In this document: positions 4,043 to 62,036 of the stretch, piece by piece
Position numbering within the stretch: the stretch's first letter is position 1
Layout: every line of letters starts with the position of its first letter
Source: an uncultured virus (IMG/VR IMGVR_UViG_3300023171_000012)
Lineage: Duplodnaviria > Heunggongvirae > Uroviricota > Caudoviricetes
Virus record (IMG/VR): IMGVR_UViG_3300023171_000012
DNA: 64,000 bases
Reading direction: 5' to 3' (one strand)
Notes under the pieces: model-generated
What the model was told of the DNA's origin: nothing
Seen by the model: only the letters and a program-made list of their open reading frames with translations
Databases searched by the model: none
Position numbers and translations under genes: made by a program

Positions 4043-4071
4043 TTGACTAGTTCCTACAATCTTACAAGTCT
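4043..4071 (+). promoter_or_regulatory. Sigma70-like promoter containing the CCTACAATCTTACAAG operator-like motif
   Basis: TTGACT-N17-AAGTCT with the recurring motif in the spacer; ATG at 4082. Confidence 0.5.
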
Positions 4072-19578: not shown

Positions 19579-19763
19579 TTCTTCACCTCCGTCTTTTTCC
19601 GGCAGATCACTTTCCGTTTCAAACGGTCCTCGCCGACTCTGAAATCAGTGCCTTCCATCTGTTTGATTACCTTCTGGAGAAGGGCGTATTCGTGGTGCTC
19701 GTAAGGCTCGGTGATTGGCTCATAGCCTGCGGCCTTGAGCTGCTCCAGTGGGTAGATTCTCAC
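19575..19763 (-). CDS. Hypothetical protein (GTG start)
   Basis: GTGA overlap with the HD gene stop; stop coupled to next ATG. Confidence 0.5.
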   Translation of the reverse strand: MRIYPLEQLKAAGYEPITEPYEHHEYALLQKVIKQMEGTDFRVGEDRLKRKVICRKKTEVKK

Positions 19764-20413
19764 GGTGCCACCTCCTTGGTCGCTCCAAACTTTGCACTCA
19801 AGAGGTCCGCCTGATGTAGCACAATCGCCTCGAAGCTCGCAGGAGCCACCGGAGATCCCCATTCCTTCACCGGACCGTGGTGCGCCAGGATGCAGTGGTT
19901 CACCGCGTCCCGGAGTTCCCTCTTCACGCCGCAGTTGATCGCGGTCGTCATGAACTGCTGTGCCGATGCGATGATGTGGGAGTGGTGGCCGAAGAGTTCC
20001 GTGTGTTTGGGGTCTTTGTGCCAGAACACACTGTGGGTATTAATGAAATCTTCATACTTCAACAGACGCCTTTTGGGCAGAAGTTCTTCGTTTTCTGGAT
20101 GAGCGCAAAACTCCCCCAGAATATACTCCTCAATCTTCATCAGATCGTGCCACAGCACAGCGGCGATGAGCACATCCGAATCACCGTGCTTGCCGAAGTG
20201 ATACGTCAGCTCTCCATCCCTCAGATTGAGAATCCCGCCTGCGATGTCCGCCACTTCCAGAGTGTGGGCGATCAATCCACCCTCATAGGCATGGTGGAAA
20301 CTCAGGCTCGCGGGCCAGAGGAAAAAGTTCTCATAATGGAAAAGGGTTTCACAGGTCTTGCGGAGAGCCGGGTCGTGTATCAACTCGACGTATTCTTTCA
20401 GTTTTTGTTTCAT
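19760..20413 (-). CDS. HD-domain phosphohydrolase, YhaM/Cbf1-like, lacking the OB fold
   Basis: PAS..FHHAYEGGL..HT, LWHDLMK, ILAHHG..EWGSPV.P and LHQAD motifs. Confidence 0.85.
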   Translation of the reverse strand: MKQKLKEYVELIHDPALRKTCETLFHYENFFLWPASLSFHHAYEGGLIAHTLEVADIAGGILNLRDGELTYHFGKHGDSDVLIAAVLWHDLMKIEEYILGEFCAHPENEELLPKRRLLKYEDFINTHSVFWHKDPKHTELFGHHSHIIASAQQFMTTAINCGVKRELRDAVNHCILAHHGPVKEWGSPVAPASFEAIVLHQADLLSAKFGATKEVAP

Positions 20414-20796
20414 GGTGTGTATTGTTTTACGTATTCAGAGTCCCATTTACGGGTGAGAATGTCTGCGGCTTGTTCCTCGCTGCGGACGATCCCGGCGATG
20501 CCGCCGAGGGCGTTCACGCGCCGTAAGAATTTACCTTGGTCTTCCTTTCGCTTTTTGGAAGTTTTATCTTTCACTTGTTTCATTTCCCACGCGGCGAATA
20601 CGCCTATGGTCTTACCCACGTCTTCCTGGGTCACGGTGTGGGGGATCAGACCGATCAGGTCCGACACTCCCTTGACACCAATGTCCACGTAGGAGCCATC
20701 GAGAGCGATGAACGTGCCAACCTGATAACGGAGAAACATCGCACCTTCCTTTGAGGCGAGGATGCGGACAGCGGCTTGTGTGGTGGCTTCATTCAT
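20410..20796 (-). CDS. VRR-NUC domain nuclease
   Basis: G.SDLIG...E.K...Q..FL..V...GG.AG.VRS pattern. Confidence 0.8.
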   Translation of the reverse strand: MNEATTQAAVRILASKEGAMFLRYQVGTFIALDGSYVDIGVKGVSDLIGLIPHTVTQEDVGKTIGVFAAWEMKQVKDKTSKKRKEDQGKFLRRVNALGGIAGIVRSEEQAADILTRKWDSEYVKQYTP

Positions 20797-22998: not shown

Positions 22999-25182
22999 TT
23001 AATCCTTAAGATAATAGGGTGCCTGTGAACCGTCACAATCGAGTGGAAATGAACTTGCCCATTCATCCCGCGTCTGCATGGCTTCCATGAATCCTTCTAA
23101 AGGTAGACTACCATCTGCGAGAGATAGAGCTTGGTCATGGACAATCAATCGGATGTCATAACCCCTGCGTTCGGCTTCGATGCAACCACGATTCAGGAGA
23201 CATGCCCCCGTTGCCTGAATGGCATTTTCAAAGACGCGGCTTCCAAAGGTAGCCACCCGGCCCCATGTATTGGTGAGCGAGATCTTGCCATAGAAACTGA
23301 TCTGGTCCACCCAGTAGCCGCCCTTCTCACGCTTCCATGGGGCTTCCACCATATCGGCTTCATCATATTTACGAAACACGGATTTGATCTGGGGACTGGG
23401 GTAGTAGAGTTTCCGACCACTGGGTAAGGTCATCACCAGATAAGAAATGCCCGCAGCCCGGCCACAGGTGAAAGATAGCCTTCCAGCACATGCCCCAAAC
23501 TTTTCCCCTGGCTTCCGAATGGCGTCACGAATAGCCTCTTCAATGTCGCGCCACGATTTGACCGTGCTCTGGTTGGTCTCCCGGTAAATCTTCACATAGT
23601 CATCACATTCCTTTCGAGTCCGAGAGACATTGTAGGGGGGCTTCGCCAGTGCTTCCATGAGGGCCTTGCCACCGACGCCAAAACAGCAACCCAGTACGAC
23701 TGGCTTCGCAATCGTGCGCTGCTCCTTGGTGACATCCTCATAGGGTATCTTGAAGAGTTTTGCCGCCATGGATTTGTACTGGTCGATACCTGCCACGATG
23801 GATTTCAGCCCTTCCTCATCACCCGCAAGCCAACTGGTCAACCGGGCTTCCACCCCTTTGTAGTCAATGTCATAGAAATAACCAGTGTGGGGCTGAATGA
23901 AATGTCGGATGCTGGATGCAATCGCCTCCAGGGGTGACTCCCACAATTCTTCGAACCAATCCAAGGAAAAGCCTTCGCATATCATCTGATAGCAAAGAGC
24001 AGAATGTTCAATGGTGGTCTTGCGGAAATTCTGCGGTTGAATGATACGTCCGGTAGCCCTCCCAGTTCTCGCTCCATGCCATTGGGTGGTGCCTTTCACC
24101 GTGTGATCCGGGCAAGCCGCATCCCTCATCACGGGCAGCTTTTTTAGAGCTGCGAAGCTGAGAAGTGAGCGCATGCGGAGAACTTCAATAGCGATGGGGC
24201 GCATGTCGGCTGGAGGTTTCTCCAGCACTTCCTCCACGGTGCCCGCCTGCAAGTCATTCTCCGGGTAGCCGCGCTCCCGCAACCATTCCAGCAGCTTCGC
24301 ACGTTGCCCGGAGGTAATGCCCTCGGTCATGGTGAGCACCCTGGCTTCCAGCTTCTCCTTATATTTCTCCACCAATATGTCAGCATGCCTCAGTGCCTCC
24401 ATGTTCACTGGCACCCCCCGGAAATTCATCTTCAGGTCGAACTGAAAACTGGCAAGCTCATCCCCCTTCAGTTCAAAATGCTTCAGCTTGTTGTGGAGTT
24501 CGCGTTCGACCTTTACATCGTTCCGGCAGTAAGCACAAAAGGTCTCCCATGCCTCACGCACGGTCATGAGGTTTCCTCCCACTTTTATCTGCCAATCCCA
24601 CAAGATTTCTTCATCCAGAATGGGATTATTCGACGTGCGGTTAGCGGGTTTTTTCCCAGCGGTGAAAGAACCATTCTTGAGCTGCTTGATGGTGTCAGGG
24701 TCTTTCATGCCAGGCGGCGGAAACAACGTAACCGACTTCGTTTGGATCGAGAACACGTCGATCAAAGACTTGCCGATGGCATCTTTCTTGTAACCCAGCC
24801 CAAAGAATTCTGCCGCCGCAGCGAGGGACTCAGGAGCAGCAGCACGTTTACACATTGCTTGGGTGCATCGGTACACGTCAAGAGAGTCTGGTGGTGATAT
24901 TCCAACATCCGCTTCCAAGCGTGACGCGGTAAGCGGGATCTCGAACGCAGCGTGATGGGCGTACAAGAGCTTTTGTTTCTGAATTCCATCATGGAGCATT
25001 GCCTCTGCCGCCAAAGATTCTTCACCAAAGGGATCTACGAAAGACCACAACAATGGCTCTCCCGTTGTCCCAGCAACAGCAAACATGAGAATCCGCGTAG
25101 AAGGGTCCGCAGCATAACGGTAAGAGCCTAACGAGATGTCGCAGGCAGAAGTGGTCTCGTAGTCAAAATGCAATTCATTCAT
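22999..25182 (-). CDS. Phage family A DNA polymerase with 3'-5' exonuclease
   Basis: ExoI DYET, ExoIII YC.NDV, GARTGR, motif A DYKGVEAR, motif B R..AK...LG..FG, motif C VHDQ. Confidence 0.92.
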   Translation of the reverse strand: MNELHFDYETTSACDISLGSYRYAADPSTRILMFAVAGTTGEPLLWSFVDPFGEESLAAEAMLHDGIQKQKLLYAHHAAFEIPLTASRLEADVGISPPDSLDVYRCTQAMCKRAAAPESLAAAAEFFGLGYKKDAIGKSLIDVFSIQTKSVTLFPPPGMKDPDTIKQLKNGSFTAGKKPANRTSNNPILDEEILWDWQIKVGGNLMTVREAWETFCAYCRNDVKVERELHNKLKHFELKGDELASFQFDLKMNFRGVPVNMEALRHADILVEKYKEKLEARVLTMTEGITSGQRAKLLEWLRERGYPENDLQAGTVEEVLEKPPADMRPIAIEVLRMRSLLSFAALKKLPVMRDAACPDHTVKGTTQWHGARTGRATGRIIQPQNFRKTTIEHSALCYQMICEGFSLDWFEELWESPLEAIASSIRHFIQPHTGYFYDIDYKGVEARLTSWLAGDEEGLKSIVAGIDQYKSMAAKLFKIPYEDVTKEQRTIAKPVVLGCCFGVGGKALMEALAKPPYNVSRTRKECDDYVKIYRETNQSTVKSWRDIEEAIRDAIRKPGEKFGACAGRLSFTCGRAAGISYLVMTLPSGRKLYYPSPQIKSVFRKYDEADMVEAPWKREKGGYWVDQISFYGKISLTNTWGRVATFGSRVFENAIQATGACLLNRGCIEAERRGYDIRLIVHDQALSLADGSLPLEGFMEAMQTRDEWASSFPLDCDGSQAPYYLKD

Positions 25183-25757
25183 GCTTGAACCCTCCCATGA
25201 TTTACGTGGTAGCCATATACATTTTCGGCGGACTTCCGCGCCACTGCTGCATCCTCCTTGCTATCAAAAACACCTAAATGGGTTAGTCTCCCGCCCACAG
25301 TAATGTTTGCTGTCCATTTTTGAATTCCTGTGTGCCAATGAACCCCCATAATGCCCGAAGTGTTTCGCTGGGGCCTAGCCGTATTTTTCTGGTTTTCGTC
25401 CCGAGAAATGGATCTCAAATTAGCCCACGAATTATCAAATGTTACGCCGTTGATATGGTCGATAAACTTTGGCTCTTCTCCTGTTACAATTTTCCAAATT
25501 ATCCTGTGAGCCAAATAAGGAACCCCATTTATGTAGCCATTCAGATAACCCGCTCTGTTTGACGTGTAGAAAGCTTCACTCCCCGGGTGCTGTGAATTCC
25601 AACTGGATACAAGCCTTTTGGGATACTTAATATCTAGATTAAAAGTCCAATCAGGCCGATGTTTCCAAACCAGTTTTCCGGAAATTGAGTCATATGACAG
25701 AATTTTTCGTAAAAGGTCTGCATCTGGCAGCAGTTTAATAGGGGCGCAGGTAATCAT
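25179..25757 (-). CDS. HNH homing endonuclease with AP2-like C-terminus
   Basis: AHRIIW...IDHING...DN...NLR and NTSGIMGV.W motifs; lower GC. Confidence 0.9.
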   Translation of the reverse strand: MITCAPIKLLPDADLLRKILSYDSISGKLVWKHRPDWTFNLDIKYPKRLVSSWNSQHPGSEAFYTSNRAGYLNGYINGVPYLAHRIIWKIVTGEEPKFIDHINGVTFDNSWANLRSISRDENQKNTARPQRNTSGIMGVHWHTGIQKWTANITVGGRLTHLGVFDSKEDAAVARKSAENVYGYHVNHGRVQA

Positions 25758-27854: not shown

Positions 27855-28403
27855 TTATCCGTGGTTGGCGAATTTGCCGTGTAACCGTTTTCTCGCATCT
27901 TCAACGGCTTTCGTCGCATCCTCGATGTTATCAAAGCTACCGAGATAGAGGTAAGGCCCTTTATTCTGACGAAGGCGGGCTATCCATTTGTTGGTGCCTT
28001 TTCTGAGTGAAACGCCTTTGACCCCTGAAGTGTTGTTACTCCGCAATTTAGAATTCTGAAGGTTTTCAAATCTACGAACCACCCGGAGGTTAGCGATTCG
28101 GTTGTCATCTCTGGAGCCATTTATGTGGTCCACATCGCCTTCAGGCCATTCTCCTGAAGTGACAAACATCGCAAGGCGATGAGCCAAGACCCGAACTCCA
28201 CAAACATCAATATGGCGATAGCCATTGTAGGCGATAAAACCTGCAATGTTTCCCACACATCTAGCATTCCATCTGTTTCTGAAATTGTCGTGTGGGAAAT
28301 CTTCCGCAGAACGTGGGTTCCAACGGAATTCACCTGAAAGCGGGCAATAATTGAGATGCTTGAGAAATTCCTCTTTTGTTTTTGTATTAGGCTTCGGTTT
28401 CAT
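27855..28403 (-). CDS. HNH homing endonuclease with AP2-like C-terminus
   Basis: AHRLA...VDHING.RDDNRIANLR, NNTSGVKGV and YLGSF motifs. Confidence 0.9.
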   Translation of the reverse strand: MKPKPNTKTKEEFLKHLNYCPLSGEFRWNPRSAEDFPHDNFRNRWNARCVGNIAGFIAYNGYRHIDVCGVRVLAHRLAMFVTSGEWPEGDVDHINGSRDDNRIANLRVVRRFENLQNSKLRSNNTSGVKGVSLRKGTNKWIARLRQNKGPYLYLGSFDNIEDATKAVEDARKRLHGKFANHG

Positions 28404-30204: not shown

Positions 30205-32750
30205 AGGTCTTTTTGAATTCTGCTCAAAAGAATTTCATCCGCGCCGAGAATGCCCTCGATGTAGTTCTCCAGATGGACCCAGATCTGGGTTCTCATGCCG
30301 TCGATATTGAACATTTTGCCTTCTTCGTAAGCGACATAGCCAAGGGACGAGAGGTAGATTTCCACTTTTGCATTATTACGAGCCTCGTGCTCGGTGAGAG
30401 CATTCAGGTGGGCCATACTGATGACATCCTCGCCGATCATCAGGAAATCGGGGTCGGCGATGAGCTGCTCGGATTTTATCAGGAGATGGTTTTTGGAAGT
30501 CTCTACCATCTGACGACGGTATTTCGTATCCGGTGCTGGGCCGTTCACAGGGAAGTCCTCGGAGATTTCGTGGTTCATAAGATAGTGGCGGATCGCTCCG
30601 GGAAAATTGGCCACCATATTGTGGCACGCATCGAACAAATATCCCAGAGGTGTGATCTGGTGCTTGAACTGGAGCGGGCTGTAAATTACAAAGAAGCGGC
30701 GGTCGGATTCTTCAATGTGAATCGAGTTCTTGAAATTCGTGAAGGCGACAAAATTGACTAAATTTATCACGACACGCGGGTCTTTGAATTTCTGGTTCAG
30801 GCTCACCCGGTCATTGGTGATCGCGTCCTTGATCTTGTTCGCCACCTCGGCCCGGTTCTGCCCCGGTGAGAGAAGCTCGTCGAAGATCACCACTTGGCAT
30901 CCCGCCCGCCACGAATTGAAATCCGAAGACATAGCCCCTGGCGCGATGATGTTCACATTCGTGACACCGATGGCTGCGGAGAGAATGTCACCGAGTGTTC
31001 CCTTGCCCGCGCCTTGGCAACTCTGGATGATCGGTGCCCAGCGGATCTTGATCCCCGGAAACTGAACGATGAAAGAGATGAAATCCAAAATGAGTCTTTC
31101 GTGTTCGGCATTGCCGATGAGGCTCTTCAAAAGTTTCCGAATCCATTTCCCAGCCATTTTCGAATTCACCGCATCCATGGTGGGGACGGAACTGAGTCGG
31201 TATTCGTTGAGGTAGCTACGGCCTTCGAAATTGAACACGGGATCTGCCGCTCCGAAGCGCGGGTCATAGGTCACACCGTCCACCTTGGGGATCTTGCGGA
31301 CGTTGAGCGCATGGTTTACCGGGAGCACCGCAGGCTTGCCAGAGCGTGCCTGCTCGCTTTCACCGTCCTTCGGCATCAGGAACTCGGAAAAGGTGTTGTC
31401 GAAACCCGCAGGGCTGTACTCCACACCATTCATGGCATTGCGAAAGACGTTCTGCGAAGTGATGAAGTAAATCGGCCGGAGCCATCCTTCCAGTTCGCCG
31501 GAGGATTCCTCTTCCTTCGTCTTACGGCGGACGTTGTTCACCTGCCGCTTGATCGTGGCTTTGTCGATCCGGGTGCCCGAGAGGGTTTTTATCCTGTCCC
31601 GCAAGGCAATCACCAGAGCCTCCTCCACCATGTCGTTCTTGAACGGTAGCTCGGCGATGCGGGTTGCGCCTTCCTCTTGCAGGACGTTGCCGTCCTCACA
31701 CTCGGCGATCCATTCCAACACGCCCTGCTTCACTTTGGTAGCGAGCTTTGTCGGCACCCAGCCGTGCTCCTGGGCCATCATGAAGAGCGTGCGGATGGTT
31801 ACGGGAGCTTTTCCTTTCGGCTCAGGGGTGAAGGATTTCCATTTTGCGTATGGCTCATTCTCCTTGTATTTGTCACTGCCGCTGCTCCAGTCGTCGAACA
31901 GTTCGAACGCCGCTCTTGCCGAATCCGTGTCTCGGAATTGATGAATAAGCGACGAAATCACGCGAGTCCAAGGACCGTAGGTAATGTCTGGAGGAATGGA
32001 ACGGAGCACCGGCTCAATGTCCTCCACCGTGATTCCCATGAGAGGGAGGTATTGAAGAGAAGTTTCTTCGCTGCTTTCACCCCTCCAAGCATAGGTGCGC
32101 TCTGCCTCTTCCACTTCGTCTTCGCTCATCTCCGGTAGATCCACTACATCGAGCGGGTATCCCTCTGTCCTGCTGGCAATGACCGGGCTGTGGCTGTCTT
32201 CGCCGAGGAAGCTCACCGGACGGTACGCAGGTTGTGAGAGAACCGTAGTTTCACGGTATCCTTTGAAGTCTTTCGGAAGACCAAGACGCATCATCAAATA
32301 GCGCACGATCCGCTTGTGGTGTGCCAGATCACAAGACTTAACATCCACAATAATACGAAGACGTGGATTCTCCGGTGTAGAATTAGAAGTGTGATAAACC
32401 GCAAAATTGAAAGGCCACAAGTGCTCAATCAGCGTTTCGGGACTCTCGGCAAACTGCTTCGCTTCAATGCCGCCATCCAGATCGAAGCAGATCAATTCGA
32501 GCGACTCTGCATTATCATCACAGCGATGGGAGGTGCCAAGCTTGAATGACACTGCTGTCACGTATGGCCCGGCCTTGATTGCGTTACGCTCTCTCTCCGG
32601 TCTCGAACGAAAATCCTCTCGGGATAATTGGATTGGGACCGGAATGTTGATATACTTCTCAAGGAACTCCTTGAAGTTTTCAGCAGCAAGCGGGCGTATC
32701 GTAGCGTTGGACGTGGTTGAGCCACCCCAGTATTTTTGGTGGTCACTCAT
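30201..32750 (-). CDS. Primase-helicase (AEP-like primase, PriCT-2, DUF5906/SF3-like P-loop)
   Basis: FDLDG and PRLRII; W...I...F..WS....KY...KW.SF; QGAGKGT, FDE, FTN and DRRF motifs. Confidence 0.88.
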   Translation of the reverse strand: MSDHQKYWGGSTTSNATIRPLAAENFKEFLEKYINIPVPIQLSREDFRSRPERERNAIKAGPYVTAVSFKLGTSHRCDDNAESLELICFDLDGGIEAKQFAESPETLIEHLWPFNFAVYHTSNSTPENPRLRIIVDVKSCDLAHHKRIVRYLMMRLGLPKDFKGYRETTVLSQPAYRPVSFLGEDSHSPVIASRTEGYPLDVVDLPEMSEDEVEEAERTYAWRGESSEETSLQYLPLMGITVEDIEPVLRSIPPDITYGPWTRVISSLIHQFRDTDSARAAFELFDDWSSGSDKYKENEPYAKWKSFTPEPKGKAPVTIRTLFMMAQEHGWVPTKLATKVKQGVLEWIAECEDGNVLQEEGATRIAELPFKNDMVEEALVIALRDRIKTLSGTRIDKATIKRQVNNVRRKTKEEESSGELEGWLRPIYFITSQNVFRNAMNGVEYSPAGFDNTFSEFLMPKDGESEQARSGKPAVLPVNHALNVRKIPKVDGVTYDPRFGAADPVFNFEGRSYLNEYRLSSVPTMDAVNSKMAGKWIRKLLKSLIGNAEHERLILDFISFIVQFPGIKIRWAPIIQSCQGAGKGTLGDILSAAIGVTNVNIIAPGAMSSDFNSWRAGCQVVIFDELLSPGQNRAEVANKIKDAITNDRVSLNQKFKDPRVVINLVNFVAFTNFKNSIHIEESDRRFFVIYSPLQFKHQITPLGYLFDACHNMVANFPGAIRHYLMNHEISEDFPVNGPAPDTKYRRQMVETSKNHLLIKSEQLIADPDFLMIGEDVISMAHLNALTEHEARNNAKVEIYLSSLGYVAYEEGKMFNIDGMRTQIWVHLENYIEGILGADEILLSRIQKDL

Positions 32751-33577
32751 ACGCGGTTGCTGGTTCTTTTTTGTTTAGGTTGATTCACTGCGCGTTCTAC
32801 ACTTCCCCAACGTGAGATCCTGTTTTCTAAAAATTTGCGGTCCATGCCCAAATTCTCGGCCAAGTCAGGTACGGTTGTTTTCTTCCCTTTATACTGAATG
32901 AAGTGAGTAATCCGGCGATTGCGGAGTTGTTGCTTCATTGTTGCCCAGCGGCAGTTAGTTGGTTCATAATCCCCGTCGTTATCGACACGATCTATTGACA
33001 TGCCCTCTGGGCGATCTCCCATATCTTCGTAGAAATTTTTGAAGTCCTTCCACCGTTCACACACCCGAATACCTCGGTCATAGTAATTCTCGGGGCATGA
33101 CCTTCCTGTTCCTCGGGATATCAAAGACTTCCACGACGCATAAGCTCCTGACTTATACTGCCCATGCGTAGTTCTTAGTTCTTTACTAATACAGCCGCAG
33201 CTGCTTACTACTCCTCTTTTAATGGAGACAAGCTCACAGGATTTTTCTTGTCCACAAGAGCATCGGCATAAGACGCGCCGTTTCTTTTTTCCTGTGGTCG
33301 ATACAAAAGCAGGTTCTACCTCCCTCAAGACGGTCAAACGACCGAAGGTCTCCCCCACTGGGGCTGCATCCCTGTTCGGTTTTTTCCATTTATAGCAACC
33401 ACAACTCTTGACCTCGCCCTTTTTGACGCGAGTCAGAAGTCGAACGACCGCATTTCCGCAGTCACACCGCCACTCGATGGCCCGACGGGTTTGCCCTCCT
33501 GTTGTAACATCATCTTCTACATCTCTCAAAGCCGTGAGCATGTAAAATTTCCGACCTATGAAATCCTCGCGGCTCAT
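32747..33577 (-). CDS. HNH-like homing endonuclease with repeated Cys-rich DNA-binding modules
   Basis: Two C.CG...SCGC modules; RGI.VC.RW..F..F..DMG.RP...SIDR.DN...Y.P.NCRWAT...Q.RN. Confidence 0.85.
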   Translation of the reverse strand: MSREDFIGRKFYMLTALRDVEDDVTTGGQTRRAIEWRCDCGNAVVRLLTRVKKGEVKSCGCYKWKKPNRDAAPVGETFGRLTVLREVEPAFVSTTGKKKRRVLCRCSCGQEKSCELVSIKRGVVSSCGCISKELRTTHGQYKSGAYASWKSLISRGTGRSCPENYYDRGIRVCERWKDFKNFYEDMGDRPEGMSIDRVDNDGDYEPTNCRWATMKQQLRNRRITHFIQYKGKKTTVPDLAENLGMDRKFLENRISRWGSVERAVNQPKQKRTSNRV

Positions 33578-34844: not shown

Positions 34845-35071
34845 TTGATGACAACGAAATCGAAGACCACCGGCTCGCGGGCGAGATTACTCTGGTTCTC
34901 CAGAATGGTCCACCTGCCGAACGGGAATCCCTGCTGCGGGCAATCGCCTCAATGCACGGTGAAGCCCGCGCCCGTGAGATGGACGGTTGGTATCCCTCGC
35001 TGCTGCCCACGGCACCACCGCGTTGCTGCATCTGCAACTGGCATCACCTCTCTGATGTACCCTGTCCATGA
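34841..35071 (+). CDS. Hypothetical protein with Cys/His-rich C-terminus
   Basis: ATGA-coupled at both ends. Confidence 0.55.
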   Translation: MIDDNEIEDHRLAGEITLVLQNGPPAERESLLRAIASMHGEARAREMDGWYPSLLPTAPPRCCICNWHHLSDVPCP

Positions 35072-35595
35072 GATCCCCCGGATACTCCCACCGCGACCGT
35101 CATCTTGCTGAAGGTTTCTTCACCTTGAAGAGAGAACCTGGTCCCGGCATGTGCATGGTCACACGCTGTCGGAACGACCACGGCAAGGGGAAGTTCTCTC
35201 TATGTCACAAGCACTATCAGCACCGCTGGCGGATGCTCAACCCGAAACAGTCGGCATTTGCCGCGCTGCGGGACCATGCGAAGGGGCGCGGAATCGAGTT
35301 CAGCCTGACTTTCGATTATTTTCAAGGAATGTGCGACGCGTACGCGATGTTCGACCACAACGCCGAGACCTTTGGTGAATACCCGTCCATCGACAGAGTG
35401 GACAGCACCATCGGCTACCGGCCGGGGAACCTCCGCATCATCACGGTCTCGCAAAATGCCGAGAAATCCGCCCGTGAGAAATTCCTCCCCGCAGCAGTAC
35501 AAGAGATCCTCGCCAGGAAACGTGCGAAGGCAAAAAACAACCCGCTCCTCATAGAAGAGCGGGTCGCCGAGACCGAAGAGAACTGTCCGTTCTAA
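35068..35595 (+). CDS. HNH-like nuclease-fold protein with N-terminal Zn finger
   Basis: C....C...C.KH; SIDR.D...GY..GN.......N motif. Confidence 0.65.
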   Translation: MRSPGYSHRDRHLAEGFFTLKREPGPGMCMVTRCRNDHGKGKFSLCHKHYQHRWRMLNPKQSAFAALRDHAKGRGIEFSLTFDYFQGMCDAYAMFDHNAETFGEYPSIDRVDSTIGYRPGNLRIITVSQNAEKSAREKFLPAAVQEILARKRAKAKNNPLLIEERVAETEENCPF

Positions 35596-45844: not shown

Positions 45845-45864
45845 GGCGTGTGAAGGGGTAGAGG

Positions 45865-46332: not shown

Positions 46333-46368
46333 GAGTGTAGGTAGTGAGGTGTTAAGGCGTGAGGTGAA

Positions 46369-47196: not shown

Positions 47197-47222
47197 GGGT
47201 GTGAGGTGGTGGGTAAGGTGTT

Positions 47223-47387: not shown

Positions 47388-47411
47388 GAGGTGTGAGGTG
47401 GGTAAGGTGTT

Positions 47412-49941: not shown

Positions 49942-50053
49942 GACTTGTAAGGTTGTAGGGTTGTATCCGACATGGGAATTCCCATATCCAGAAACCCCCT
50001 ATAAATTTTTCCCAAAAATAACACTTGTAAGGTTGTAAGAAGTGTCATAAAAG
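49942..50053 (+). promoter_or_regulatory. Two operator-like CTTGTAAGGTTGTA boxes (49944-49957, 50024-50037) and promoter for the HTH-recombinase operon
   Basis: Exact 14-bp repeat; reverse complement of the motif at 4053, 52157 and 56316. Confidence 0.6.
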
Positions 50054-50062
50054 AACCCCGCC

Positions 50063-50374
50063 ATGAATATTAATCAGCAAATTCAAGAAGTGTATCACCT
50101 CGCAGGATCAAAAACGTGTGGGTGTTGTGCGGGAAAAGGGGAAGTCCAAAATTCCGAAGCCATCGGCAAGGAGATCCGCGCCCGACGCGAGGCAGCAGGG
50201 CTAATCATCGCGGAGGTCGCCAAGCGTGTGAATCTCAAACCAAGGTATCTCCATCTTTTGGAGGAGGGAGAGAAGTTTTGGTACACTCATGACCTTCGTG
50301 AGGTTCTCAAAGCCCTAGACCCAGCTTGGGTAAAGACCACCCCTCCCGAACCCCCAACTACCCTCATCTTATGA
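50063..50374 (+). CDS. XRE-family HTH protein with N-terminal CxxCxGxG
   Basis: IRARREAAGL...EVAKRV......L..LEEG motif. Confidence 0.75.
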   Translation: MNINQQIQEVYHLAGSKTCGCCAGKGEVQNSEAIGKEIRARREAAGLIIAEVAKRVNLKPRYLHLLEEGEKFWYTHDLREVLKALDPAWVKTTPPEPPTTLIL

Positions 50375-51000
50375 GCACTCCAGTCGCAATCCTCGTCCGC
50401 GTCTCCACCCAGAAGCAGGAGACAGATCGTCAGATCCACGAACTGACCCAGCTCGCCGCAGCCCGCAACTGGCATGTCACCGAGACCGTGTTCGAGCATG
50501 GAGTATCCGGTGCCGTCGACACCCGTCCAGGACTGGAGCGGTGCTTGGAGCTGGCCCGCGCCGGAACCATTGAGAAGGTGCTCGTCCATGAAGTGAGCCG
50601 TGTGGCGCGGAAGAACTCCATCGCCCACAAGTTCCTGGAGGATCTCGCCGAACTGAAGGTCTCACTCTACTGGCATGCCCACAGCATTGAGACCCTGCTA
50701 CCGAATGGTAAGCAGAACCCCGCCGCGTCCATCATGTTTTCCTTGCTGGCCGAGTTCGCCCGGGCCGAGCGGGAACTGATGCGGGAGCGCACCATGTCCG
50801 GTGTGGCTGAAGCCCGCCGCCGGGGAGTGGTGATGGGCAGACCCAAAGGGACCACAACACCTGATGATGTCATCCTCACCAAATACCCCGATGTCGCCCG
50901 CCAGCTCCGCGCCGGTCAGTCCATCCGCCATGCAGCGGCAATCACCGGGAAAAGCAAAGCCACCGTGGAGAAAATCAAGAAACTACTTGTCAGAGTGTAG
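50371..51000 (+). CDS. Serine recombinase (resolvase/invertase type) with C-terminal HTH
   Basis: RVST..Q, SG....RPGL, SRVAR, AE.ER....ERT..G...A and GRP motifs. Confidence 0.92.
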   Translation: MSTPVAILVRVSTQKQETDRQIHELTQLAAARNWHVTETVFEHGVSGAVDTRPGLERCLELARAGTIEKVLVHEVSRVARKNSIAHKFLEDLAELKVSLYWHAHSIETLLPNGKQNPAASIMFSLLAEFARAERELMRERTMSGVAEARRRGVVMGRPKGTTTPDDVILTKYPDVARQLRAGQSIRHAAAITGKSKATVEKIKKLLVRV

Positions 51001-51029
51001 GAATGTCTGTAACACCAGCGCACACCACC

Positions 51030-51479
51030 ATGAAAACGCAAATAAATCATCCTCCCCTACTTCCCGGATTCTCTCCTGCCGTGAATGGCCCTCTCAAAGT
51101 CCTTGCCATGGGAGATCAAATTGAGGATGTCGCTTATTACTACCCCGGCGAGCATGATGGGGAATACTGGATTACGAGCACTTACGGGCTTGACTCGGAA
51201 GCACTTTATTCCCTCCGTCTCGGCTCCGAGATTCTGGAACTAAATGAAGCCATGTTCAATACGGCCACCTCTGCGAGGCGGCTCCGCCCGGACATTGGTG
51301 TTCCATACTCCCACATCACCGTCCGCGAGGGCTTCGCCATTCAGATCCTGGCGGGCATGAAAGCAGACCGTGCTCGGGATGCCATCACAAATACTGATGG
51401 TGTCACCGTAGCCCAAGCCATGGCGAAAGAAGCCGTGGTCCAGGCCGACGCGCTCATCTCCGAACTCAACAAACCATGA
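51030..51479 (+). CDS. Hypothetical phage protein
   Basis: C-terminal T.RE.FA...LAG....A..AV..ADALI.EL motif. Confidence 0.6.
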   Translation: MKTQINHPPLLPGFSPAVNGPLKVLAMGDQIEDVAYYYPGEHDGEYWITSTYGLDSEALYSLRLGSEILELNEAMFNTATSARRLRPDIGVPYSHITVREGFAIQILAGMKADRARDAITNTDGVTVAQAMAKEAVVQADALISELNKP

Positions 51480-51658
51480 ACGATACACCCCCACCAAGAA
51501 AAGTTGGCAGACCCGCCACCGGCAGAACGAAAGTCAAACTCTCGGCATCCGTGAACAGACAACTGGTGGAAGCCGCCACCCGCGAGGCTTACTCCAAAGG
51601 CGAGAGCCTGTCACAGTGGGTATCCCGCGCCATGCAAAGCCAACTCCTCAAATCATGA
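51476..51658 (+). CDS. Ribbon-helix-helix DNA-binding protein
   Basis: GRP.TG, beta strand KVKLSASV, helix, G.SLSQWV..A. Confidence 0.75.
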   Translation: MNDTPPPRKVGRPATGRTKVKLSASVNRQLVEAATREAYSKGESLSQWVSRAMQSQLLKS

Positions 51659-51867
51659 ACATCCCAATCGCCATCATCGTATTCTGCGGCCCTATGGCCA
51701 TCGCCAACTGGATTTTCGCAATCGCATTCATCAGGCAAACCAACGACATGATGCGAAAGAGCGAATCCGAAGAAGAGACCCTTAAAAGTGGAGGTAAGGC
51801 CATTATGCTTTCTGTCCTGGCATTGCTTTTTACCGCGCTCACCACCGGAGCTGCATTCGCCCTATGA
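51655..51867 (+). CDS. Small two-TM membrane protein
   Basis: Two hydrophobic helices; coupled. Confidence 0.5.
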   Translation: MNIPIAIIVFCGPMAIANWIFAIAFIRQTNDMMRKSESEEETLKSGGKAIMLSVLALLFTALTTGAAFAL

Positions 51868-52049
51868 ACCCTCGTGGCTGCATGCAGATCCTCGTCTCAC
51901 TGATTGTCGTGGGCCTGTTCCTCGCAGTCACCTTGTATTTCGTCCTGAACCCGATCTATGTGATCTACCAAAAGGAGCGTCACATGACGCCTCCCACCAT
52001 CCAATACACCTACCGACTAACACTGAAACACGATGAAATTGATCCTTGA
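51864..52049 (+). CDS. Small single-TM protein
   Basis: Hydrophobic N-half; coupled. Confidence 0.5.
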   Translation: MNPRGCMQILVSLIVVGLFLAVTLYFVLNPIYVIYQKERHMTPPTIQYTYRLTLKHDEIDP

Positions 52050-52077
52050 CACCACCCCGTCCGCGTAGGATTCTCCC

Positions 52078-52143
52078 CTCGCTGTTTCATGTGTGTATCT
52101 GAGACCCGTCTGTGCTTCCCTTAGTGCAGGCGGGTTTTTCTTT
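52078..52143 (+). ncRNA. Candidate small RNA (about 65 nt) with anti-start-codon seed
   Basis: TTGACA at 52046, unpaired TGTTTCATGTGTGTAT, then a terminator. Confidence 0.4.
52104..52143 (+). terminator. Intrinsic terminator
   Basis: ACCCGTCTGTGCT/AGTGCAGGCGGGT stem followed by a T run. Confidence 0.75.
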
Positions 52144-52182
52144 ACTTGACGACACCCCTACAATCTTGCAATCTGACGCCAG

Positions 52183-52446
52183 ATGAATGTTGAACAGTCC
52201 CTGCGTGAGATCACACGCCGCACCCCCAAGCCCCCGAATGTCCGTGCGGGACATGGCCAATGGATCGACCCCGCCCGCGTGGTCCAGGGACTTGTGGAGA
52301 AAGGCTGGAGTGTCTCCGACGCCGTGCGCGAGGTCATTGCCAGCCACAAGCTGCATCCACCGGACAAGGCATTCAAGGGCATCCGCGCCGCGTATTACGT
52401 CGTGGTGAAGCAGTCGAAGGAACCTGTTGAGGATTTTGAGGTATGA
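52183..52446 (+). CDS. Hypothetical protein ending in EDFEV
   Basis: TTGACG-N17-CAATCT promoter with operator motif just upstream. Confidence 0.65.
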   Translation: MNVEQSLREITRRTPKPPNVRAGHGQWIDPARVVQGLVEKGWSVSDAVREVIASHKLHPPDKAFKGIRAAYYVVVKQSKEPVEDFEV

Positions 52447-52733
52447 TGGACCCCGTGAATTGCGACTGGTGCCACTGCTCTTTCGTCCCTACGCCGGACA
52501 GCTTCGTGGAGACAGGATTTGGTGTCTTCCCCGAGACCGAGGACTGGCAAGGCCCACAAGAGCCTGTCGGCGGTCTCGACATCACCAATATCCCTGAAGA
52601 ACAGAAAGCCGAATTAAAGGAAGCCATGCAGCTCGATGACGAGCAGCTCACCCAGCTTCTGAAGGAAGGCGTCATTGACAAGGAGACTTCCTGCCTGTGC
52701 CCGGACTGTCTCGACACGGAGGGCTGCGACTGA
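52443..52733 (+). CDS. Acidic Zn-finger protein
   Basis: CDWC...CPDC motifs. Confidence 0.6.
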   Translation: MMDPVNCDWCHCSFVPTPDSFVETGFGVFPETEDWQGPQEPVGGLDITNIPEEQKAELKEAMQLDDEQLTQLLKEGVIDKETSCLCPDCLDTEGCD

Positions 52734-52737
52734 TTTT

Positions 52738-53022
52738 ATGAACCTACTCCCTGACCCCACACCCGAAGGCATCGCCTGCCTCGACGATTCCTATGCGTAT
52801 GCCCTCATCGGCCGCACGATCCACCCTGACGGCGAGACCCGGTTCTGCTACTCCCTGAGCAAGATGCTCAAGCGCGAGAATGTGGCTCCGGCGGAGATCT
52901 TCAAGCTCGTCCAGGAGGTCACTGCGGATCTCGGCGACCGTGCTCCGCTGTTCATCGACGACTCTGTTTCCACCGAGGAGAAGGTAAGGATTCTCGGACC
53001 TTCGGGGGAATTGCTGAACTGA
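52738..53022 (+). CDS. Hypothetical phage protein
   Basis: D...ALIG...Y...KM...G..APLF pattern. Confidence 0.6.
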   Translation: MNLLPDPTPEGIACLDDSYAYALIGRTIHPDGETRFCYSLSKMLKRENVAPAEIFKLVQEVTADLGDRAPLFIDDSVSTEEKVRILGPSGELLN

Positions 53023-53024
53023 GT

Positions 53025-56000
53025 ATGAGCAGAGGAAGACCACCTAAGATTACCCCCGCACCTGCGCTGAACTATTACGGTTTGGAGCGGTTGGGGTATG
53101 CCAGTGCAATCCCCCTGACAGGTGACTATTTTGCAGATCAGCTCACTATTGAGTTTATCTGCTTTCGTATTTCACATCGTCGGAGTGAAGGCGGTCTGGA
53201 TAGGTTTGGGCACATGAAGAAGGGCATCGACCTTCTTTACAATAACCCGGATCGGCCCTCCATGAAGTCGCTGGTCTGGAACCCTTGGGCCGAGCGCATG
53301 ATGAGGAAAGCCTGTGAGTGCTCAGAGCTTTCGGTCGCTGGCCCGACCTCCGCTGGAAAATGCTGGTCCCCTGAAACGCCCATTCTCCGATTTGATGGCA
53401 CAATATGCCGGGCTGATGAAGTTCGGCCGGGGGATCTTCTCATGGGCGATGACAGTCAGCCGCGAACCGTCCAAGAAGTGCATTCGGGAACCGGCCCGAT
53501 GTATCAGGTCACACCAATTCAAGGCGAACCATGGAGATGTACACCCGAGCATGTTCTCGTCTTGAAGAGAGCCTTCGCTCCTAAAAAATGCTGGAGACGC
53601 GTGGGGGAGATTACAGAAGTATCGGCAGAGGATTATTTCAATGCCAGCATTCAATTCAAACGACAACATAAGCAGTTCTGTGTTGGCGTGGAATTTCCTG
53701 AACAACCAGTCCCCTTCGATCCCCGTTTGCTTGGGATATGGCTCGGCGACGGACACTATCATGGCTGCCGCATTTCCATACCCGACATCGAGCCTGACGT
53801 TCTAGCATACGTCCGTGAATGGGCAGGTCCCGCAGGGTATCAGGTTGTGGTTCCAAAAGATTGGAACCCCGGCTGCCCGAGCTACCCAATCTATCCAGTA
53901 AAACAGATAGAAGGTTTTGGGAGAGGCCGTAACCCGTTGGCTCAGTTTTTCAAAAGCAATATACGGGATGGAGAGAAACGCATCCGTCCCGAGTATCTCA
54001 TCAATTCCCGGAAAGTCCGGCTGGAGCTTCTTGCCGGGTTGCTTGACACGGATGGGCATGCTGCCGGGACATACTTTGAAATAGCCACAAAGTATGGAGG
54101 GTTGAAAGATGATATTCTTTTCTTGGCACGATCTCTCGGATTTCGTGTGACGGCGACACACCGCTTGGCAACATGCCAGGGGAAAAAATTCCCATCTTGG
54201 AGAATCAATATCATGGGGGAGCTGTCGGAGATTCCTACTCTTCGGAAGAAGTGCCGAGACAAAACTCTCCGGGTGAATTCAGACCAGACAGGAATCACGG
54301 TCTCCAAGGTGGAAGATGGCCCTTGGGTCGGCTTCTCCGTGGACGGGAATCACCGGCTCCTGCTTGGAGACTTCACTGTGAGTCACAATTCAGACCCTTA
54401 CGCCGCGTATGCCCTGTTCAGCTATATTGCGGACCCGACACACACCAAAGTCCTCATCATGTCCACCACGTTGGACGGTGCGAAGCTGCGGATCTGGAAA
54501 ACTTTCCGAGAATATGTGTCCGCGCTGCCCAATCTTCCGGGAAAACCTCAATGGAGCACCAACCGGATTCAGGGGCCAAATTACGCAGGAGATGGCTACG
54601 GCGATTCCTCCGGGGTTATGCTTCTGGCATCTGAAAAGTCTCGGGAGAGGGATGCCTTGGAAAAGATGCTGGGGATCAAGGCCCCCATGACAGGTCGGCC
54701 GGACAAGACTTTCGAGGCTCTGAAAGCTCGACCGGAGTTTGCCGATCTCGCAGAACAGTTCGATGATGAGTATCTTGAAGACCTGCTCCCCCGCTTGGCC
54801 AATCTCACAGATGACCGCGCCGGGAAGTTGATCTTAATCGTCGATGAAGCAACAGGACTCTCTGAATCCCTACTCCAAGCGATCAACCTGAACATGAAGC
54901 CCGGCAACGCCGGAAACCTTCAGGTCATTATGATTGCCAACCCGCATCTACATTGGGACGCCCACGGAATTTTCAGTGAACCAAAAGTCGGGTGGGAGAA
55001 TATCACTATCGACGATGAGGAGTGGGAGACAAAAACCGGAGGAACTTGCATCCGATTCAACGGTGAAAAGAACCCGCGTCTCACAGAGAAGAACGAGCGA
55101 TATGTCTGGATGCTTTCCCAGCAACGGATCGAAGATATTGCCCGCGACTCCGGCGGAAAAGGCAGTATCGGGTACTGGCGAATGGTTTTAGGGGCCTGGC
55201 TACCACAAGGTTCTGATTCGGGCATTTACAGCCAAGCAGACATCGAGCAGGCGGGAGCGATGAAGAAGGCGGTTTGGGGGTTCAGGCCACCAATCATAAT
55301 TTCCGCGCTGGATACCGCCTACACCAGCGGCGGGGACAAATCGAGCTGTTCATTCTTCAATTTTGGGCTTGATACCGAAGGCATCCAGACCTTGGAGCTT
55401 ATCGAGCAAATCGCCATCAAGACGGACATCAATGACCTGAGCCGCCCGATTAGCTACCAGATGGTCCATAACTGGCGGAAAGAGTGCAAGGCTCGCGGTG
55501 TGCTGCCGGAGCATGCTTGCTTCGATTCCACTGGTGGCGGGATCTCATTCGCGGACATCGTGAAAACCCAATGGTCTTCTCAAGTGCTCGGAATCAGCGC
55601 AGGCGGCAAAGCCCCGAAGGTTGCCGTCGGCAGTGAAAAAGACCGCGATGGCAAGCCTGTGCTGGCCTCTGACCGCTTCTTCAACAGAGCCACCCAGTTG
55701 TGGCTTGGAGCGATGCCGTTCCTGCGCTCCGGCCAGATAAAAGGTATCCCCATGGCACTCGCCAAGGAAATCATCTCCAGGCAGTATGACAAGACCGGAG
55801 CTGCCGACGGACGGACGCTGAAGATCGAAGGAAAAAGAATTTTCAAGTCGCGGGAGAAGCACTCTCCCGATGATTCAGACAGCTTCTTCCTCGGCATCGA
55901 GTTGGCGAAGGTCCGTCTCGGATTCAAACCTTCGGAACAAGCGGCAGCACCTGAAATGGTGACAGGCCGAAGTGGTGTCGGAACGTGGAAAGCGTTTTGC

Positions 56001-56299: not shown

Positions 56300-56352
56300 A
56301 TCAAACATTGACAACCCTACAATCTTAAATCAATCTTCGCGCCTCAACCAAC

Positions 56353-60807: not shown

Positions 60808-61167
60808 GGGACGCTTCCGGTTTCGACTGAACCGGGTATCCTATTGATAGCATGCAGAGGTTGATCGGTGGGCCTCTTAAAAAGCCGATCAAGAATCCAA
60901 ATGGCAATAACGTCATCAGCTTCAGCCGCAACGTCGCAAAGTCTTCGGACCTCGCGCTTGTAGCCTAAGCGAAAAACGGTCCCCGCAATGATCCGATAAG
61001 CGGGAGACTCCAAACCGGATCAACAAACGGAACCCAGAGCCGTAAAGACTGGGTGGTGGATGGCGAGGAGGTTTTTACCAAAAGACCGAATCCCCCAAAT
61101 ATAAGCATGTTTGAAGTCAATAGGTAATCGGTTCAGGACAGGGGTTCGACTCCCCTGCGTTCCACCA
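60808..61167 (+). ncRNA. ssrA: tmRNA (one-piece, 360 nt); tag (A)GNNVISFSRNVAKSSDLALVA at 60903-60968
   Basis: Acceptor GGGACGC/GCGTTCC with G3-U70, ACCA end, T arm AGGGG-TTCGACT-CCCCT, P2 helices, pk1 GAGG/CCTC plus TTGATCGG/CCGATCAA. Confidence 0.95.
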
Positions 61168-61169
61168 CT

Positions 61170-61666
61170 TTCAGCCGAAAGGCATCAATATCGTGTGAAA
61201 TCCCGGTTCGACTCCGGGCTTCTCCTCTGAAGAGGAGAGGTAGTTTAACGGCAGAGCGCACACCCTCAATTTCCCTGTAACAAGGGGACTCATAAACACC
61301 AGAGGACCAATCACAAGCCCACCGTGTGACCGAAGGTGCCCGTCGTTTGTCGGGAATTTCTAGCCCAGTCGAGTGTCTGACTGGAAAACGGGGGAAGGCA
61401 CACCACATTTCAGTTCACTGTCATTGAGGGGAATCAGAAAATCAGCGGCCAGCCAACGCCAGTCGAAAGGAACCCGGAGCGATCCGGTAATACTGAACTC
61501 TGATTTAGCGACCTGAGCAGTGAATTGAAATGTGGTAACAGAAGGCTGTCTCTCACGAGTTGCCACATACGAGAGATAGTGCGGCCGAGCGAGTAATCGC
61601 GATAGCCACCTGCATCCAGAAGATGCGCGGGAGAGCTGAACCAAGCCCGTAAAATCCTACACTCAG
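61170..61666 (+). ncRNA. Large highly structured ncRNA (GOLLD-like candidate, class unconfirmed)
   Basis: 19-bp stem 61402-61420/61518-61536, several GNRA hairpins, long-range CCCTCAAT/ATTGAGGG, no plausible ORF, terminator follows. Confidence 0.6.
61193..61263 (+). ncRNA. Circularly permuted tRNA-like domain (T arm, capped acceptor hairpin, D arm; YrlA-like topology)
   Basis: GTGTG-AAAT-CCCGG TTCGACT CCGGG-CTTCTCCTC TGAA GAGGAGAGG-TA-GTTT AACGGCA GAGC-G-CACAC. Confidence 0.8.
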
Positions 61667-61670
61667 TTAT

Positions 61671-61702
61671 CCCGATGTCGGAATTCCGACATCGGGGTTT
61701 TT
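61671..61702 (+). terminator. Intrinsic terminator of the ncRNA cluster
   Basis: Perfect 26-bp palindrome CCCGATGTCGGAATTCCGACATCGGG followed by GTTTTT. Confidence 0.85.
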
Positions 61703-61865: not shown

Positions 61866-62036
61866 ATGTCCATCGGAACCAGACAACAGCCTGAAAAATG
61901 GCTGGATTTTAAATTCCGCCACAAGACGAGATCGCGGAAGTGGGAAAAGCAGAAGAAGAACCGAAAACTCCGGCATCTGGCTTCGGTGAACCCTGAAGTA
62001 GGACCGCAGCCTAAGTATTGTGGCTGGGAGTGGTAA
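61866..62036 (+). CDS. Small basic protein (56 aa; not in ORF track)
   Basis: MSIGTRQQ...KYCGWEW; starts immediately after the previous stop. Confidence 0.5.
   Translation: MSIGTRQQPEKWLDFKFRHKTRSRKWEKQKKNRKLRHLASVNPEVGPQPKYCGWEW

Follow-up and report, generated by a model that had tools for sequence, protein, structure and literature searches.

Does the short noncoding stretch between the accessory genes of this phage and its packaging and head genes simply end a transcript, or does it also encode an RNA that acts on the phage's own gene starts? The sequence-only reading of the locus proposed a late trans-acting sRNA that occludes start codons in a system lacking Shine-Dalgarno (SD) signals. 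We analysed the whole 64-kb stretch of DNA in which the locus lies (hereafter the window), which is phage DNA and is present in full in a leaf-litter metagenome run (X1). Genes were called with a codon model and annotated against PHROGs (76 proteins) and Pfam (17 proteins), giving the following map:

47969 to 17694, minus strand: block of small early genes, then a T7-like replication module (primase-helicase, Gp2.5-like SSB, exonuclease, DNA polymerase A, helicase, methyltransferases and three HNH endonucleases)
19760..20413, minus strand: HD phosphohydrolase gene within the replication module, start region at 20406..20422
48497 onward, plus strand: plus-strand genes, the accessory cassette first and the late genes beyond the flagged gap
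50063-52049, plus strand: accessory cassette of ~2 kb, with an HTH regulator (50063), a serine recombinase (50371-51000), unknown genes and two small hydrophobic (membrane) proteins (51655-52049)
51864..52049, plus strand: last gene of the cassette, a small hydrophobic protein of 61 aa (or 55 aa from 51882), TGA stop at 52047-49
52183..52446, plus strand: first gene of the late operon (gp52183), 87 aa, with synteny in the related loci L132-L135 and L211
52443-52733, 52738-53022 and 53025-56042, plus strand: next genes of the late (packaging/head) operon, the last of these being the large terminase (TerL)
further late genes, plus strand: a likely portal, a likely capsid protein and a tmRNA gene

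The last cassette gene has a codon score of +16.4 to +16.8, and its product matches no family in Pfam or PHROG. TerL has ~100 relatives at 45-64% identity. Two of these are named as proteins of Planctomycetota or Phycisphaerales MAGs, and one lies on a 68-kb contig (G001:C1) of a Phycisphaerales MAG. These matches hint at the Planctomycetota as the host group, a pointer that falls short of proof. Planctomycetes are listed among the phyla with a small share of SD genes (PMC5397173).

The terminase contains an intein with Hint and homing-endonuclease domains, and its relatives occur both without an intein (~660 aa) and with an intein-type domain (765-917 aa; PF05203, or PF05204/PF14528). The three HNH homing-type endonuclease genes are scattered in the replication module (25179-25757, 27855-28403 and 32747-33577, minus strand), and an endonuclease VII/HNH-like gene is found at 35068-35595. 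The tmRNA gene is full length (60808-61167, plus strand; Rfam RF00023, 112.5 bits; ARAGORN tag ATSQSLRTSRL*) and lies within the late region, 3′ of the capsid-like gene. Further 3′ (61205-61220 and 61669-61698) are a second GGTTCGACTCC T-arm-like copy and then a strong terminator. A tmRNA was searched for in the relatives L131-L133, L135, L001 and G001:C1 and not found.

The elements of the locus itself are as follows:

52046..52051, plus strand: TTGACA, -35-like element of a putative promoter (P1), overlapping the TGA stop at 52047-49
52069..52074, plus strand: GATTCT, weak -10-like hexamer of P1, 17 nt after TTGACA
52083..52098, plus strand: TGTTTCATGTGTGTAT, the start-mirroring 'seed', reverse complement of a C/A-rich leader plus an ATG-AAA start context
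52101..52143, plus strand: predicted intrinsic terminator, hairpin 52101-52138, stem 52104-15/52124-35, loop TTCCCTTA, tail TTTTTCTTT
52146..52174, plus strand: promoter-like motif P2, with TTGACG, TACAAT (52159-64) and CAATCT (52169-74), 8 nt 5′ of the packaging/head operon ATG
52010..52090, minus strand: 26-codon ORF whose start lies in the seed; rejected

The terminator named in the sequence-only reading is present and strong. We found a hairpin of 16 pairs, 7 of them G-C, with a 6-8-nt loop and then the T-tract TTTTTCTTT; its fold has a dG of -24.9 kcal/mol (z -4.88), and none of 200 shuffled sequences folded equally well. Whole-window scans returned six hairpins with at least 11 pairs, the terminator among them. 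It is located 52 nt 3′ of the stop codon of 51864..52049 and 3 nt 5′ of the next promoter-like motif, co-oriented with the upstream unit. With the GC-rich stem-loop and U-tract of a Rho-independent terminator, at the 3′ end of a co-oriented unit, 52101..52143 is a predicted intrinsic terminator closing the upstream plus-strand unit. Upstream of the window's four other strong terminators we observed no anti-start sequence. When Rfam covariance models were run over the window, the tmRNA alone passed its gathering threshold; at the locus there was no family match, the best scores being 13.9 bits for sX5 (cut-off 50) and 11.6 bits for bxd_2.

P2, directly beyond the terminator, belongs to a recurrent motif. 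The pattern TTGAC-N3-9-TACAA has 5 matches in the window against 0.37 expected, all of them intergenic and pointing at the next gene:

4043-4071, plus strand: TTGAC-N3-9-TACAA site
30204-30189, minus strand: TTGAC-N3-9-TACAA site
48459-48444, minus strand: TTGAC-N3-9-TACAA site
52146-52174, plus strand: TTGAC-N3-9-TACAA site (P2)
56308-56336, plus strand: TTGAC-N3-9-TACAA site

Frequently the motif, TTGAC-N3-9-TACAA(TCT), is accompanied by a second box, CAATCT, located 6-22 nt 5′ of the start codon. Boxes resembling it precede the gp52183 and gp56353 homologues in L132, L133, L001 and L211, and a P2-type motif is conserved before these genes in relatives; a scan of L001 for the promoter motif was negative. 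Since P2 begins 3 nt past the terminator tail and reaches to 8 nt from the ATG at 52183, the next transcription unit would start after the terminator. If CAATCT serves as the -10 element, several late mRNAs would have little or no leader. A scan of viral contigs for the promoter motif gave at least 120 single-copy matches, which were judged to be chance and are left out of the results.

The evidence for P1 is of another kind. The TTGACA promoter of the sequence-only reading has its hexamer in place, overlapping the stop codon; however, a sigma-70 scan of the plus strand found no match at the locus and the -10 is just GATTCT. TTGACA is at chance level in the window (26 copies, 33.6 expected), as is TTGAC-N10-20-TANNNT (7 matches, 8.27 expected), and no part of the window is enriched for sigma-70 matches. 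P1 has no TACAAT box. A pattern defined post hoc from sites already seen, TTGAC-N19-ANTCT, has 4 matches against 0.40 expected (4043, 52046, 52146 and 56308), all on the plus strand and intergenic, and none of 100 shuffles reached 4. P1 and P2, 100 nt downstream, have TTGACnnCACCCC in common, and in L133 the element TTGACA-17-GATTCT, containing both P1 hexamers, lies 6 nt before the start codon of the gp52183 homologue. Judged by its sequence, P1 is possibly functional.

Motifs of the TACAA type are also found at the other end of the cassette. Tandem 8-bp repeats on the opposite strand (49944-49964 and 50024-50040) flank a palindrome, ATGGGAATTCCCAT, just upstream of the HTH gene, and these are probably operator sites. 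The HTH-upstream repeat and the late promoter motif form an inverted repeat (49945-64/52152-71, 85%), and because the repeats match the late promoter motif in inverted orientation, the pair brackets the serine-recombinase cassette. The pair may delimit an invertible segment; no joints were seen in the matching metagenome contigs, and the same motif occurs at several promoters in the orientation of transcription.

Using a profile of 51 TerL sequences, we retrieved six IMG/VR loci (50-59% identity) and one MAG contig, which have in common the order gp52183, gp52738, TerL, gp56353, portal and capsid protein. L132 (54% TerL identity) and L133 (51%) have a strong hairpin with a T-run at the equivalent position (z -4.4 and -4.0), between unrelated upstream genes (best BLASTP E 0.41) and the TTGAC promoter-like element of the gp52183 homologue. 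Both also carry a TTGAC 64-69 nt upstream of the hairpin, inside the unrelated genes, where the window has 55-58 nt; at about one TTGAC per kb per strand this is mildly unexpected. The spacer from stop codon to hairpin is ~52 nt in the window as opposed to 25-29 nt in L132 and L133, the extra sequence being the seed. L134 has just a weak hairpin, within the upstream gene, and L001 (55% TerL identity) ends at a contig edge, leaving no DNA upstream. In L135 (1345-2061) and L211 (4915-5580) a serine recombinase gene with a Resolvase domain is directly adjacent to the late promoter and gp52183 homologue, with no terminator in between; compared with these two, the window has four extra small genes and the terminator between recombinase and late promoter. 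Since the recombinase abuts the late promoter in the two loci that have no terminator, the terminator travels with the inserted accessory genes, and the comparison suggests that the site between recombinase and late promoter is an insertion hot spot for accessory genes.

Among phages, no close relatives were found by blastn with 50000-54000 or by tblastn with the portal and with the TerL C-extein, nor did a first TerL scan of genome contigs give any. Viral contigs held no loci related to gp52183 and the portal and no match to a 24-nt exact pattern, and a DNA polymerase search gave relatives of ~30% identity only.

Near-identical strains show exchange at the right end of the cassette. The sequence was found in four runs, all of them DNA. 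A contig from an aquatic run (X2) matches 52045-52250 (206 nt, 99%) with 2 differences, and its 88 upstream nt are unlike the window; a second X2 contig matches 51464-51692 and then diverges, and X2 matches are ~98-99% identical overall. In run X3 the junctions are at 51838 and 52179. The X2 and X3 strains are ~98% identical to the window on both sides of 51693-52044 and have unlike sequence in place of the two small-membrane-protein genes. Because the X2 matches flank unlike sequence, these genes constitute an exchangeable cassette, and the position of its right junction is exactly that of the stop codon and TTGACA. The junction at 52045 would fit a gene-boundary recombination joint and would equally fit a conserved block beginning with the promoter. 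We infer that the similarity of P1 and P2 could be a scar of cassette exchange. One of the 2 differences in the first X2 contig, T>C at 52125 in the terminator stem, changes a G.U pair to G-C.

The proposal of an RNA directed at gene starts presupposes a particular kind of start, and this part of the sequence-only reading was borne out. There is no SD signal: GGAG, GAGG and AGGA tetramers occur in 19 of 86 start windows and 61 of 345 internal windows. The leaders are rich in C and A and poor in G, and the minus-strand ATG genes (n=41) have C at -1 in 63% and A at +4 in 88%, in line with the C/A-rich leaders plus ATGAA that had been described. Six further sites of the type TTTCATG(G)GTGTG that it had pointed out are likewise gene starts (42902, 44322, 45398, 45844, 47729 and 47927). 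Several short intergenic spacers of early genes (minus-strand leaders 47197-47222, 47388-47411, 46333-46368 and 45845-45864) are near-repeats of ACACCTTACCCACC(A)CCTCACACC, poor in G and with C directly 5′ of ATG-AAA, a leader style common to relatives. The 68-kb relative G001:C1 has the same C/A-rich leaders.

The seed is a 16-nt, GU-rich sequence containing CAU, and we found TGTTTCATGTGTGTAT at 52083-52098 as reported. Its best predicted pairing partner is the start of the HD gene, which reads TGTTTCATGGTGTGTAT on the plus strand at 20406-22; the predicted duplex has an energy of -19.8 kcal/mol and the one bulge that had been claimed. Whether the complementarity exceeds chance depends on the measure chosen, and the outcome is mixed. 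The best absolute energy is ordinary, with 452 of 1500 random 20-mers matching -19.8 kcal/mol. When the 51-nt spacer was matched locally to all starts by Watson-Crick pairing, the HD gene again came first; 6 of 1000 shuffles and 20 of 1500 random 51-mers equalled or exceeded its score of 14. We then expressed start preference as the mean duplex energy to the 86 start windows less that to internal windows. By this statistic 1 of 1500 random 20-mers and 0 of 500 shuffles were as extreme as the 20-mer 52081-52100, and none of 900 CAT-containing control 20-mers (sampled from 2089, none antisense to a called start) equalled it. Tiling of the non-coding DNA (26 stretches, 6255 nt, both strands, 2902 20-mers) gave ranks 1-3 to 52082 (-1.89), 52086 (-1.72) and 52078 (-1.33), the next being -1.23 at 62032. 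These top ranks make the stretch an outlier, but some stretch must rank first, and the per-stretch probability is ~1%.

Predicted pairing is broad and uneven between the strands. For 37 of the 86 start windows the predicted duplex spans the AUG and has an energy of -12 kcal/mol or better, and at -10 or better 30 of 48 minus-strand starts are reached as against 12 of 38 plus-strand starts. Within the cassette, the gene start at 51030 (CACCACC-ATG-AAAAC) pairs with the stretch at -13.6 to -15.8 kcal/mol. The seed had been described as unpaired, which holds for the 5′ 20 nt of an RNA starting near 52081; in the fold of the 94-nt 3′ UTR, however, it is partly paired with 52051-55.

Conservation of the seed had been named as a check, and the relatives speak against it. 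The pre-terminator stretches of L132 and L133 have no unusual preference for their own starts (90 of 600 and 48 of 600 random 20-mers are as extreme), their targets being 22 and 16 starts, mostly of late genes, and the unit is absent in L135 and L211. In the 30 intergenic regions of G001:C1 no comparable anti-start element was found; the top anti-start intergenic 20-mers there run antisense to genes of a minus-strand block at 67.2 kb. The X2 contig, 99% identical over 206 nt, is too similar to inform on conservation of the seed. By this comparison of relatives, what is conserved is the late promoter, plus a terminator where accessory genes have been inserted upstream, and the seed is not.

Read on the minus strand, the seed contains an ATG in the context ATACACAC-ATG-AAA-CAG, ranked 82nd of 2165 ATGs in start-likeness and agreeing with the start of the HD gene at 16 of 17 nt. 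The stretch might on this basis be a real or decayed minus-strand gene start, either of the 26-codon ORF 52090..52010 or as the relic of a rearranged module, an explanation that we find barely credible. The ORF has a codon score of -9.5 (-0.36 per codon), overlaps the plus-strand gene by 40 nt and has no minus-strand transcription unit around it, and we rejected it as a gene. Homology to X2 breaks at 52045, inside the ORF, leaving its last 12 codons in the differing part. The codon score and this break also tell against the idea, raised earlier as an alternative, that the ORF is the conserved element of the locus. Additionally, 42 non-start ATGs score above the one at 52090, some of which are true starts missed by the gene caller.

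How, then, is 52050-52143 best explained? In the best-supported reading, to which we give even odds, it is the 3′ UTR and terminator at the end of an exchangeable accessory cassette, with a conserved late promoter beyond. It would form the untranslated tail and Rho-independent terminator of the ~2-kb plus-strand cassette 50063-52049, halting cassette transcription just upstream of the late promoter-like element 52146-52174, which in turn would start the packaging/head operon at 52183. The TTGACA at 52046 would be a by-product of the stop-codon context and may be a recombination scar that duplicates the late promoter's 5′ part, and the 16-nt start-mirroring stretch would be a real but lineage-specific sequence whose role is only proposed. 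A strong hairpin and U-tract between a coding plus-strand ORF and a recurrent promoter-like motif count for such a boundary; the terminator, its position, the downstream motif with its conservation and the swapping of the cassette are directly supported. Several findings count against a plain boundary: no other non-coding 20-mer in the window prefers starts as strongly as the seed; TTGAC-N19-ANTCT is in excess, the P1 hexamers are those of the L133 late promoter, and P1 and P2 share a common sequence; and L132 and L133 have their TTGAC 64-69 nt 5′ of the hairpin, with the longer spacer of the window accounted for by the seed. We infer both that termination is the sole function and that P1 is silent.

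An RNA of ~60 nt could run from a start near 52081, set by TTGACA-17-GATTCT, to the terminator, with a 5′ end that blocks the AUGs and leaders of minus-strand early and replication mRNAs; in our judgement this is unlikely. The late trans-acting sRNA of the sequence-only reading keeps its anatomy, namely a possible promoter, a start-complementary 5′ stretch, a terminator and an SD-less system. In its favour are the promoter-class pattern (4 against 0.40), the unpaired 5′ 20 nt in the predicted fold, the AUG-covering duplexes and their bias to minus-strand starts, the top rank among non-coding 20-mers, and an X2 block that begins exactly at the hexamer and whose stem change keeps pairing. However, P1 lacks the TACAAT/CAATCT box, the most conserved part of the family promoters; the best energy is matched by 452 of 1500 random 20-mers; and most consensus leaders (CACCC-AUG) need a bulge in the helix upstream of the AUG. 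L132 and L133 show no functional conservation of the seed, the whole unit is missing in L135 and L211, and the 30 intergenic regions of the 68-kb relative lack a comparable element. The same stretch might act from within the 3′ UTR, without a promoter of its own, in cis or trans on C/A-rich leaders or as a processed terminator-bearing fragment. Its place just 5′ of the terminator, the anti-start statistics (1/1500, 0/900, top of 2902) and the pairing with the cassette start at 51030 would suit this, which we nevertheless rate as very unlikely, with part of the stretch paired to 52051-55 in the full 3′ UTR fold and the stretch not conserved in L132 and L133. P1 might instead drive a promoter-proximal terminated leader of the lambda PR′-tR′ type, in which most transcripts stop and a phage factor permits read-through into the late operon, the short RNA being a by-product with or without an acquired sRNA role, as for 6S and StxS. 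This is decidedly unlikely. A promoter-like element, a short RNA and a strong terminator directly upstream of the late operon, and the similar distance from TTGAC to hairpin in the window, L132 and L133 (55-69 nt), are consistent with it, and StxS (PMC7547250) is a precedent. However, read-through would be unnecessary because a second, better-conserved promoter-like motif, P2, follows the terminator; L135 and L211 have the late operon without the unit; and an antiterminator is annotated in 0 of 76 proteins against PHROGs and 0 of 17 against Pfam, though remote homologues are possible.

If the locus is a terminator only, it is an ordinary operon boundary that helps define the transcription units and the family promoter-like motif of a poorly known phage group. 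The bolder proposal, which we regard as unlikely, is that a phage of an SD-poor host encodes a ~60-nt RNA, either transcribed from a promoter of the late class or processed out of a 3′ UTR, whose 5′ end mirrors the C/A-rich leader and AUG-AAA and which shuts down initiation at early and replication genes. Such an RNA would be a compact switch-off of many genes by start-codon masking in a host without Shine-Dalgarno pairing. It would replace SD-based control for a whole temporal class, and it would give phages of the Planctomycetota, the probable host group, their first proposed regulatory RNA.

In tailed phages, intrinsic terminators close accessory ('moron'-type) cassettes. Our locus is like these in having a GC-rich hairpin and U-tract right after an accessory gene, insulating the next operon, and in that cassette content varies among relatives and the boundary stays. 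It is unlike them in that the spacer holds a start-mirroring 16-mer and a -35-like hexamer. To our knowledge, terminators and promoters of the Planctomycetota, the probable host group, have been little studied.

As at this locus, DicF and CpxQ/SroC-type RNAs have the seed 5′ of a hairpin terminator that closes an operon. The latter are 3′ UTR-derived sRNAs released by processing, and DicF of prophage Qin is described as able to arise by termination and processing with no need of its own promoter. We know of RNAs of the DicF/CpxQ/SroC type only from enterobacterial Hfq/RNase E systems.

Among phage RNAs, the c4 RNA of P1/P7 (~70 nt) blocks translation initiation, with one operon as its target. 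P22 sar is a ~70-nt RNA, cis-antisense to one gene, that pairs with a translation-initiation region and blocks initiation (PMC12197685), and StxS and lambda 6S RNA are short PR′-tR′ transcripts made between a promoter and an intrinsic terminator right upstream of the late operon (PMC7547250, PMC12197685); in Stx phages this by-product, StxS, works as a base-pairing sRNA (PMC7547250). The unit in the window likewise has a promoter-like element and a predicted terminator right upstream of the late operon. It differs from StxS and 6S in having a separate late promoter-like motif 3′ of the terminator and no Q-like antiterminator among the annotated proteins. Whereas sar and c4 each act on one gene or operon, the RNA proposed for the window would set one seed against the common start consensus of many genes.
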